Below are positions 11,669 to 50,126 of a stretch of 64,000 nucleotides of DNA, piece by piece. Numbering within the stretch: position 1 is the first letter of the stretch; every line of letters starts with the position of its first letter. The stretch covers positions 62,881 to 126,880 of IMG/VR virus record IMGVR_UViG_3300020401_000014; one strand, 5' to 3'. Both the position numbers and the translations under genes were made by a program. A model generated the notes under the pieces. It was given only the letters and a program-made list of their open reading frames with translations, was not told the origin of the DNA and did not search any database. This DNA comes from a virus.

Positions 11669-11979
11669 GGTATAATACTAAGCTAGTTTGAAATATATGT
11701 CAACCACTAAATCCAAGAAAATGAACGATTGCGATATATATAAAGATGATTAATGCTGCTAGTGCGAATGTTTGTTGGTATGTCATGGTAAATTGGTAGG
11801 ATTTTTTTGACAAATCAGGAATCCCATAAACCTGTTAATTAGCTAGTTTGGATTTTCTACTTACTAATTTCAGCTACTCATCCGCTATACTAAAGTGTGA
11901 ACCTCTTTCTCTCTCCCGAAGGTTGTAGGCGTGTGCTGACGCCTCGTTGTTCAATGCTTTCGCATCTACAGAAAGAGCA

Positions 11980-12111
11980 GTCCCCTGCAGGATTCGAACC
12001 TGCGTTTCCTACATCCTCATCGGATTACTCCTTACCAATGATCAGTTGGCTACAGACTAACTAGTATCCTGTTGTGGAGTGGCGTCCTAGGCCGTACTAG
12101 ACGAAGGGGAC
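11980..12111 (-). ncRNA. tRNA-like RNA (132 nt) with an expanded, non-canonical anticodon arm
   Basis: Acceptor GTCCCCT/AGGGGAC, D arm GTCT...GGAC, T arm GCAGG-TTCGAAT-CCTGC; 75 nt lie between the D arm and the variable loop instead of 17. Own promoter TTGACA(12175)-16-CATAAT. Confidence 0.7.
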
Positions 12112-12252
12112 ACAAATTGAAATTGATTATCAAAAGAACTATATATCATTATGACAGAAAAACGCTCCGTGTCAACACTTTTTTTTCGTTACCTAAATCG
12201 TTGGCGCAGAAGAAAATAGGAAAAATATATAAAACCTTTAAAAAAACTTTCG

Positions 12253-13874: not shown

Positions 13875-13967
13875 AAGACCAAAGGCTTTTATTGAGTTAC
13901 CTTTGAAGCGATGATAGTAACTAGAGGCAACACACAACCTCCGCATATTTGCTCAGAAAAAATAGAT

Positions 13968-14150
13968 GTGGGGGAGGACTACTGAATACCTCCAACTTTT
14001 CGGCGTGAACATCAGTTCAGGATTACCTACTTCGAACCACAGATTAGACTTGGCATTCGTCATCGACTCATCCGATTGGACTCTATCGCCCCGCCACAGG
14101 GAATCTGCGTACTTTAGCCCGCTCACGACAGGTTTAGTTCAGTCACCCAC
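13968..14150 (-). ncRNA. Structured rod-like ncRNA candidate (183 nt), 6S-like in size and shape
   Basis: Nested long-range pairings on the minus strand: GTGGG/CCCAC, ACTGAA/TTCAGT, ACCT/AGGT, CGTGAGC/GTTCACG, GCAGATT/AATCTGT. GC-rich island in an intergenic gap, between a perfect promoter and a terminator. Confidence 0.55.
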
Positions 14151-14246
14151 AGGAAGGATTATAAGCCCTTCCAAAGTGTTTAAAATGTTAAAGATCAATT
14201 TATTTTATTTATTTGAGTTTGGTTCTCAATTTTGATTATGTAATAA

Positions 14247-49769: not shown

Positions 49770-50126
49770 TGGTGGAGGTGGCGGGATTTGAACCCGCGTC
49801 TTGTTGATTATTCGGAATTAAGTCTACAGTAATAGCTTATTTTTTTTAATGTTTTGATATAAGCATCTAACATCTTGTTACAATTATTTTCAGTTTATGA
49901 ACAAGCAAACCTTTTCTGTTTTTACAGATTGATGACCCCTGCTAACTTATCTGTGTCCACCAGCGAGAGGTGCAGCTTTATGCTGCAAGAGCGAGCTCTT
50001 CGCGAGCGAAGGGCTCAACAGAATTAATGTTTGTAGCATTTATTCTTTTATGCCTTTTAACGAAGCCAGGCATCTCTTCGTACTGCATTAAAACTTTCAA
50101 ATAACAATCGAATCCAAAACACCCCC
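49770..50126 (-). ncRNA. ssrA: tmRNA (357 nt)
   Basis: 5' GGGGGTG...GGATTCGA; 3' GACGCGGGTTCAAATCCCGCCACCTCCACCA; tag ORF 50037-49978 encodes ATNINSVEPFAREELALAA*. Confidence 0.95.

Follow-up and report, generated by a model that had tools for sequence, protein, structure and literature searches.

The window analysed here, a stretch of 64,000 nucleotides of viral DNA, carries on its minus strand an RNA that, judged by the compensatory changes among its homologs, is a real and selected tRNA-shaped RNA that does not decode, and that belongs to an uncatalogued phage family. A second structured RNA, a four-way-junction domain of 78 nt, follows it directly, and the mimic and the domain together are a family that is not catalogued in Rfam. 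An initial annotation of the sequence had drawn the 7-bp acceptor stem, the D arm, the canonical T arm and the absence of an encoded CCA, and all of these are present as drawn. It had placed the end of the element at 11980, but the conserved domain runs directly on to 11901; both this obligatory 3′ domain and the self-complementary loops of the mimic had been overlooked. The features discussed below are collected in Table 1.

The source of the window is an uncultured marine T4-like myophage. The open reading frames (ORFs) include those for an rIIA-like protein, a DNA ligase, UvdE and many sugar-modifying enzymes, and ARAGORN and Rfam identify a tRNA-Thr, a tRNA-Gln, a tmRNA and a manA RNA, the last of which lies 1.9 kb upstream of the tRNA mimic. 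The tag peptide of the tmRNA ends in ALAA. DNA searches of the phage collection returned no relatives of the locus or of the first 20 kb of the window; an identical stretch is present in marine metagenome runs and in locus L182. Pfam scans of the 28 larger window ORFs gave no candidate protein partner, and no Ro (rsr) gene was found among them. Two tetranucleotides are strongly depleted across the window, ACGT (24 found, 210 expected from composition) and GTAC (83 found, 210 expected), which suggests restriction-site avoidance.

Table 1. Coordinates of the features of the window, with the observations on which each is placed
Feature	Position	Strand	Basis or remark
Sigma-70-type promoter, TTGACA-16-CATAAT	12148-12175	-	11/12 positions, plus TG before the -10
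5′ leader, ~30 nt	12112-12141	-	Between the inferred transcription start and the 5′ end of the mimic
tRNA-shaped RNA, tRNA-Glu-like body	11979-12111	-	133 nt including the discriminator U at 11979
Anticodon-stem equivalent enclosing the three-way junction	12027-12080	-	12080-12076 with 12031-12027, R1 alignment
Hairpin A, 4-bp stem, 13-nt loop with ACUAGU (12065-12060)	12052-12072	-	Covariance alignment
Hairpin B, 4-bp stem, 7-nt loop with UGAUCA (12044-12039)	12035-12049	-	Covariance alignment
Extra variable-region segment with hairpin	12004-12026	-	Subfamily-specific; 17-nt insertion relative to R1
Conserved four-way-junction domain, 78 nt	11901-11978	-	R2, 98.7 bits (match 11979-11901)
Domain P1, 8 bp, closing	11977-11970 with 11910-11903	-	8/8 pairs covary
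Domain P2, variable hairpin	11965-11954	-	4/4 pairs covary
Domain P3	11943-11928	-	Invariance partly imposed by the search pattern
Domain P4, C-run/G-run hairpin, stable tetraloop	11922-11915	-	
Third conserved non-coding module	11800-11900, approximate limits	-	Similar by eye to the sequence after the domain in L040, L097, L038 and L039
28-aa hydrophobic ORF (MTYQQTF...GFSG)	11786-11700	-	Just past the RNA modules
manA RNA	13963-14172	-	Rfam, 73.4 bits (gathering threshold 55.2)
tmRNA, one-piece, phage-encoded	49770-50126	-	ARAGORN and Rfam (133.5 bits)

Compared with a canonical tRNA, the mimic possesses a perfect acceptor stem (12111-12105 paired with 11986-11980), a D arm (12102-12084) with a 4-bp stem and an A14...GG...A21 loop, and a T arm (12003-11987) with a 5-bp stem and a UUCGAAU loop. 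All three helices covary, and the elbow nucleotides U8, A14, the GG of the D loop and the T loop are intact. What is absent is the 5-bp anticodon stem with a 7-nt loop, together with U33 and purine 37, and CCA is not encoded at the 3′ end. Close to bacterial tRNA-Glu, by comparison with that of E. coli, are the 5′ half of the mimic, its D arm and the 4-nt end of its variable loop. Pair 3:70 is C-G in the window mimic and in its relatives. RF00005 gives no match in the window even at E up to 10 (gathering threshold 29 bits), and some longer relatives reach 43-52 bits on it with the insert skipped. ARAGORN in its default mode does not call the mimic at 12111-11979, and none of the Rfam families calls it, even at E up to 10.

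The promoter that had been proposed at 12175-12148 is a strong one, borne out by its match to 11 of 12 positions and by an upstream TG, and L035, L040, L041 and L055 share it together with the leader. We infer that transcription starts at this leader and that RNase P cleaves there. The leader is ~90% identical to that of L025/L035, and the RNA body is less so. No terminator-like site was found at the locus. A contig from an RNA library, in which DNA carry-over is possible, comes from a close relative and spans 12185-11881 with the insert retained; no splice joints were seen in the assembled RNA-library contigs, which may derive from DNA. Contigs from two RNA libraries cover just the conserved domain of relatives, which speaks neither for nor against processing.

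To collect homologs, we used sequence patterns. A pattern composed of the two conserved loops and the T loop retrieved 7 viral and 36 metagenome loci, one made from the conserved downstream sequence retrieved 74 IMG/VR loci, and a D-arm-based pattern had no matches in IMG/VR. The downstream pattern, shortened by one base, matched just 10 contigs of metagenome-assembled genomes in a set with one genome for each of 185,579 species, and at least two of these were fortuitous hits in GC-rich DNA that cannot be parsed as the domain. Given so few matches there and so many viral loci, the family is therefore essentially confined to phage-type contigs. The four-way-junction domain is present in at least 118 such contigs, and the family is spread over phage contigs from marine and other aquatic settings. 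A search by synteny with the adjacent genes reveals the element in one contig alone, L025/L035; in none of 28 loci that share the neighbouring 203-aa gene does the spacer contain the element, and the domain model R2 finds no domain there. Literature searches, which included a catalogue of 10,006 viral RNAs, turned up no description of the mimic or of the 3′ domain, and the motif letters matched nothing but the coding sequence of a luciferase.

Folded by itself to minimum free energy, the sequence of the mimic did no better than shuffled sequences (z -1.4), and the three nested inner pairings of the initial annotation therefore called for comparative testing. We built a six-helix covariance model of the mimic from 14 homologs (hereafter referred to as R1). 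Along its entire length, R1 matches the window (12111-11979) with 55.6 bits (E 4e-11). In the 14-sequence MAFFT seed, 98.3% of the cells pair and 21 of the 30 pairs change on both sides; none of 500 shuffles reached the observed values, and slid controls pair at 35-46%. When the alignment, fitted to R1, was extended to 32 distinct sequences including the window and its closest relatives, 97.3% of the cells paired and both sides changed in 23 of the 30 pairs. All six helices of the mimic covary in homologs, and hairpins A and B pair at 100% across the 32 sequences. The D, T and anticodon stems of the L025/L035 copy differ from those of the window by paired changes. Compensatory change in every helix, both insert hairpins included, supports the original notion of a selected mimic and argues against decay, which would have been suggested by an insert that is unconserved and does not covary.

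The helices obtained by comparison are not the nested ones drawn before. The insert is therefore a branched three-way junction accompanied by a variable-arm hairpin, not one bulged helix. The anticodon-stem equivalent, in which family-wide both sides change in five of six pairs, opens into the three-way junction, in agreement with the earlier observation that no 5-bp stem with a 7-nt anticodon loop can be drawn. It encloses an insert of 44 nt (12075-12032), with hairpin A (stem 12072-12069 with 12055-12052, 4/4 pairs covarying) and hairpin B (stem 12049-12046 with 12038-12035, 3/4 pairs covarying); the junction strands of the window have 3 nt before A, two bases between A and B and three bases after B. 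The variable-region segment adds a further 23 nt, and the AAAC that had been taken for the variable loop is a segment of this longer region. The hairpin in the segment (12025-12022 with 12016-12013) is a local optimum, the exact pairing in the window being ambiguous, and a similar hairpin, like a class II variable arm, is also found in L159, L169, L179, L172, L163, L144, L152 and L153. The outer CC...GG contact may be a remnant of the anticodon stem of an ancestral tRNA-Glu.

Full-length matches to R1 and R2 are adjacent in the window and lie on the same strand. The 3′ domain begins one base after the discriminator and P1 two bases past the acceptor stem (N73, a purine, then P1). From there the order is P1, GUAG, P2, GAACAACGA, P3, UACAA, P4, AGAG and the 3′ strand of P1. 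P2 loops are mostly GNRA, with long insertions in some copies. Because MAFFT lost the register of the P1 strands across length variants of P2 and P4, we used a homogeneous seed with realignment by covariance model; in the resulting alignment (R2), which leans towards its model, 96.6% of the cells pair. The junction nucleotides are invariant, and the role of the junction strands, be it catalysis or the binding of a ligand or a protein, is for this reason unreadable from covariation. At the base of P2, GUA stands opposite GAA, an arrangement that would be compatible with a bulged-G (loop E) motif. A reading of P2 as a specific mimic of the sarcin-ricin loop was rejected, as its tetraloop and stem length vary.

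We compared the domain with known ribozymes. Rfam, all ribozyme classes included, gave no match to it at E up to 10 in the window and up to 1 in 12 homologous loci; in the same scope, no hammerhead, twister, twister-sister, pistol or hatchet model matched. Nor is the fold that of an HDV-like or theta ribozyme: P1, which covaries, pairs the two ends of the domain with each other and not its 5′ strand with an internal one, and there is no nested double pseudoknot.

The surroundings of the domain contain further structured elements. Structured inserts of ~35-50 nt recur at differing places (in L037 and L039, and in P2 of L041 and L086), and an insert with a GGGGCUAAUCCC-type start lies inside P2 in L037 (11590-11640) and downstream of the domain in L039 (~12140-12180); this recurrence suggests small mobile RNA modules. 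In relatives, the third module of the window (11900-11800) comes in longer versions closed by a GCUAG/CUAGC helix, or there is a different module of ~100 nt with GAGAG/CUCUC closing. Several uncatalogued RNAs seem to lie together here, as an island in the early region. The 28-aa ORF past these modules, which falls below the length of the listed ORFs and probably encodes a tiny membrane peptide, is kept in L040, L097 and L055 and is identical in L182.

The domain and the mimic go together. A long tRNA mimic precedes about 50 of the 57 distinct copies of the domain, and the bodies of these mimics are very different in sequence; the domain is thus the constant partner and the scaffold the variable one. 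Among the 118 domain-bearing loci, ARAGORN makes 81 tRNA calls, just six of which are followed by the domain, and all six are aberrant: an 'AAA' tRNA with G33 that is counted in three loci, two calls with 4-nt 'anticodons' and one miscall on hairpin B. L092 has 25 ordinary tRNAs without the domain, and the single mimic in the cluster has it. The domain is no trailer of tRNAs in general; that it is linked exclusively to non-decoding mimics speaks for a joint function.

Two normal-length tRNA-like genes stand before the domain, at 6621-6696 of L147 and 5258-5331 of L106. Both have aberrant anticodon loops, one being an 8-nt loop to which ARAGORN assigns a 4-nt anticodon and the other having G at position 33. 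At 4080-4165 of L142, ARAGORN by default mistakes part of a family member for a tRNA-Ile(GAU) with hairpin B (CUGAUCA loop) as the anticodon arm, a trap for automatic annotation.

The loops of hairpins A and B in the window contain ACUAGU and UGAUCA, respectively, both of which are 6-nt self-complementary sequences. To follow them through the family, we used units that had been collected via the downstream domain, that is, without selection on the loops. NCUAGN in the family inserts has complementary flanks in 35 of 41 cases (A..U in 21, U..A in 11, G..C in 2 and C..G in 1), and L094 has ACAUGU at the position homologous to ACUAGU. UGAUCA occurs in 11 of 34 non-redundant family inserts; of 41 GAUC sites, 21 extend to a palindrome of 6 nt, which is UGAUCA every time, and the other flanks vary without compensation. 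In total, the family inserts contain 63 palindromes of 6 nt, against 42 ± 6 in dinucleotide shuffles, a modest excess of 1.5-fold that partly reflects shared ancestry and not independent events. The loop sequences are more conserved than the stems, and the ACUAGU and UGAUCA hexamers are not unusual elsewhere in the window. Self-complementarity kept through double changes is what loop-loop pairing between identical RNAs would predict.

Several known RNAs resemble one or the other part of this element. The T4 species 1 and 2 RNAs (rnaC and rnaD, in the tRNA cluster) are, like the mimic, small, stable, non-decoding RNAs encoded by a T4-type phage, and the 3′ 92 nt of rnaC likewise place an acceptor stem and a T arm around a non-tRNA interior. 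However, rnaC scores only 14.8 bits with R1, the match being limited to the acceptor stem and the T arm, and it has no match to the D arm, no two-hairpin head and no four-way-junction domain; a search of the T4 region with R2 found nothing. The tRNA-like domain of tmRNA also combines an acceptor stem and a T arm with a long helix in place of the anticodon arm, leading on to further structure, whereas the mimic has a true D stem and lacks G3-U70, a tag frame and pseudoknots. YrlA and the bacterial Y RNAs are non-decoding tRNA mimics in which the acceptor stem is closed and the RNA ends in a Ro-binding stem on the anticodon side. The topology of the present mimic is the opposite, its ends pairing as the acceptor stem. 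In engineered bacterial tRNA scaffolds, the anticodon stem-loop is replaced by an insert, and the body is kept for folding, processing and stability. The mimic shares their topology, with a structured module grafted on the anticodon stem, but it is natural, has an obligatory 3′ domain and does not encode CCA.

Theta ribozymes are, like the 3′ domain, structured RNAs of Caudoviricetes that lie directly 3′ of a CCA-less tRNA-shaped RNA (PMC10879173). The 3′ domain differs from them in fold, being a four-way junction that its own two ends close and that has no nested double pseudoknot, and it matches none of the HDV-like families of Rfam. It is found in marine and other aquatic settings and is tied to mimics without an anticodon, whereas theta ribozymes come from the gut and are associated with suppressor tRNAs (PMC10879173). 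The tRNAs with 'enigmatic introns' of Lak megaphages (PMC6784885) are also oversized, with conserved inserts in the anticodon region, and are missed by standard tools, but they keep an assignable anticodon after removal of the insert (PMC6784885), which members of the mimic family do not. The manA, GOLLD and ROOL RNAs are phage-associated, often lie near tRNA genes and assemble via loop-loop contacts (10.64898/2026.07.01.735769; PMC12286853). The mimic shares no sequence or fold with them, and its putative multimerisation is deduced from its self-complementary loops.

The explanation that we favour, and to which we would give an even chance of being right, is that of a non-decoding tRNA scaffold whose self-complementary loops are presented for pairing between RNAs and which acts in concert with the 3′ domain. 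The locus would be one module of an early, promoter-driven non-coding transcript of several modules, and RNase P would trim the conserved leader. As in engineered tRNA scaffolds, the tRNA body would help the RNA to fold, to be processed by RNase P and to stay stable. The loops on display may kiss between RNA copies to give dimers or higher oligomers, and the 3′ domain would either stay attached as a second functional head or set the 3′ end. Early in infection, the particle so assembled would probably bind or sequester a host or phage factor that recognises tRNA; this part is a guess, one that fits early expression. ManA RNAs are reported to self-assemble into cages through kissing loops (bioRxiv 10.64898/2026.07.01.735769), and GOLLD and ROOL RNAs also self-assemble (PMC12286853); self-assembling phage RNAs therefore have precedent, which we regard as context and not as evidence. 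A bolder proposal, which we put forward tentatively and consider on balance unlikely, is that the scaffold uses its two self-complementary loops to build defined dimers or larger particles of RNA alone, carries an undescribed four-way-junction RNA that is dedicated to mimics and is catalytic or binds a ligand or a protein, and, as a new class of phage ribonucleic assembly, acts early on the tRNA-handling machinery of the host. A decoy role, as raised by the initial annotation, is possible; a decoy for GluRS or GluTR, conceivable from the tRNA-Glu-like body, was set aside, as the bodies of other members are unrelated.

Other explanations place the function in the 3′ end of the mimic or in its loops. 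The domain could be a 3′-end-forming module, a new self-cleaving ribozyme or a nuclease guide, such that the mimic is freed at the discriminator, receives CCA and acts in monomeric form as a decoy, aimed at enzymes or defence nucleases by which the acceptor and elbow of a tRNA are recognised. The fixed start of P1 two bases past the acceptor stem, the small-ribozyme-like invariance of the junction nucleotides, the lack of an encoded CCA and the theta (HDV-like) ribozymes postulated to trim the 3′ trailers of phage tRNAs (PMC10879173) are all in its favour. We nevertheless consider it rather improbable: the ribozyme families of Rfam give no hit even with E raised to 10, P1 is formed by its 5′ strand and the 3′ end of the domain, unlike in the HDV-like topology, and RNA-library contigs, which may derive from DNA, cross the junction. 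Moreover, ordinary tRNAs in the same clusters never have the domain, which hence is no general trailer processor. Less probable still is that the two conserved loops are antisense seeds, in which case the RNA would be a regulator, built on a tRNA scaffold, of the host or phage transcripts with which it pairs. Such a regulator would gain stability from the scaffold, and the loops are more conserved than the stems, but a target in trans does not require the double changes that keep self-complementarity; the window contains no extended complementary site, a 9-nt extended complement occurring once against 0.8 expected.

The remaining explanations have very little to recommend them. The initial annotation had considered an intron-containing or split tRNA, and a tRNA-Glu gene interrupted by a small protein-spliced intron is consistent with the likeness of the mimic to E. 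coli tRNA-Glu in its 5′ half, D arm and variable-loop end. Phage tRNAs with unexplained inserts have also been reported (PMC6784885). ARAGORN with introns allowed, a check that had been suggested, does call a tRNA; its anticodons and intron positions are, however, inconsistent, the forced calls for near-identical homologs being Val, Ile, Ala, Lys, Thr, Pyl and others while the position of the intron shifts. Once the hairpins are excised, 6-8 bases are left unpaired, among which there is neither U33 nor purine 37, and so no canonical anticodon loop; no loop contains a UUC or CUC anticodon; a group I intron would not fit into so small an insert, which matches no Rfam intron; and the RNA-library contigs, taken by themselves and with DNA carry-over possible, contain no joints. 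We thus regard this reading as very unlikely. No more plausible is an action of the hexamer palindromes in DNA, as operator or methylation sites, with an incidental RNA fold: the loops do contain CTAG and GATC cores, but the stems flanking the palindromes covary as RNA helices, and the frequency of the hexamers elsewhere in the window is ordinary. A decaying tRNA pseudogene or a mini-tmRNA, the latter also raised by the initial annotation, is scarcely credible. Pervasive compensatory change excludes decay. The window insert does have a Shine-Dalgarno-like run followed by AUG AGG AUG UAG, but this mini-frame lies in a window-specific segment and is absent from the closest relatives; no reading frame is conserved. 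The C-G at 3:70 is not the G-U of a tmRNA, the phage has a separate tmRNA, which is the only one called by the ARAGORN tmRNA search (49770-50126), and the Rfam tmRNA match to the mimic reaches 7.3 bits, in the T arm only.

Stable tRNA-like RNAs of phages have been known since T4 species 1 and 2. The family described here is tractable, as it is widespread, both of its halves are supported by covariation, its loops give a testable prediction of self-pairing and the junction nucleotides of its partner domain do not vary. It also shows that when relaxed finders report oversized 'tRNAs with introns' in phage genomes, these can be RNAs that do not decode. Should the 3′ domain be catalytic, or the RNA multimerise, the family would add to the few natural ribozyme classes or to the few RNA-only assemblies.
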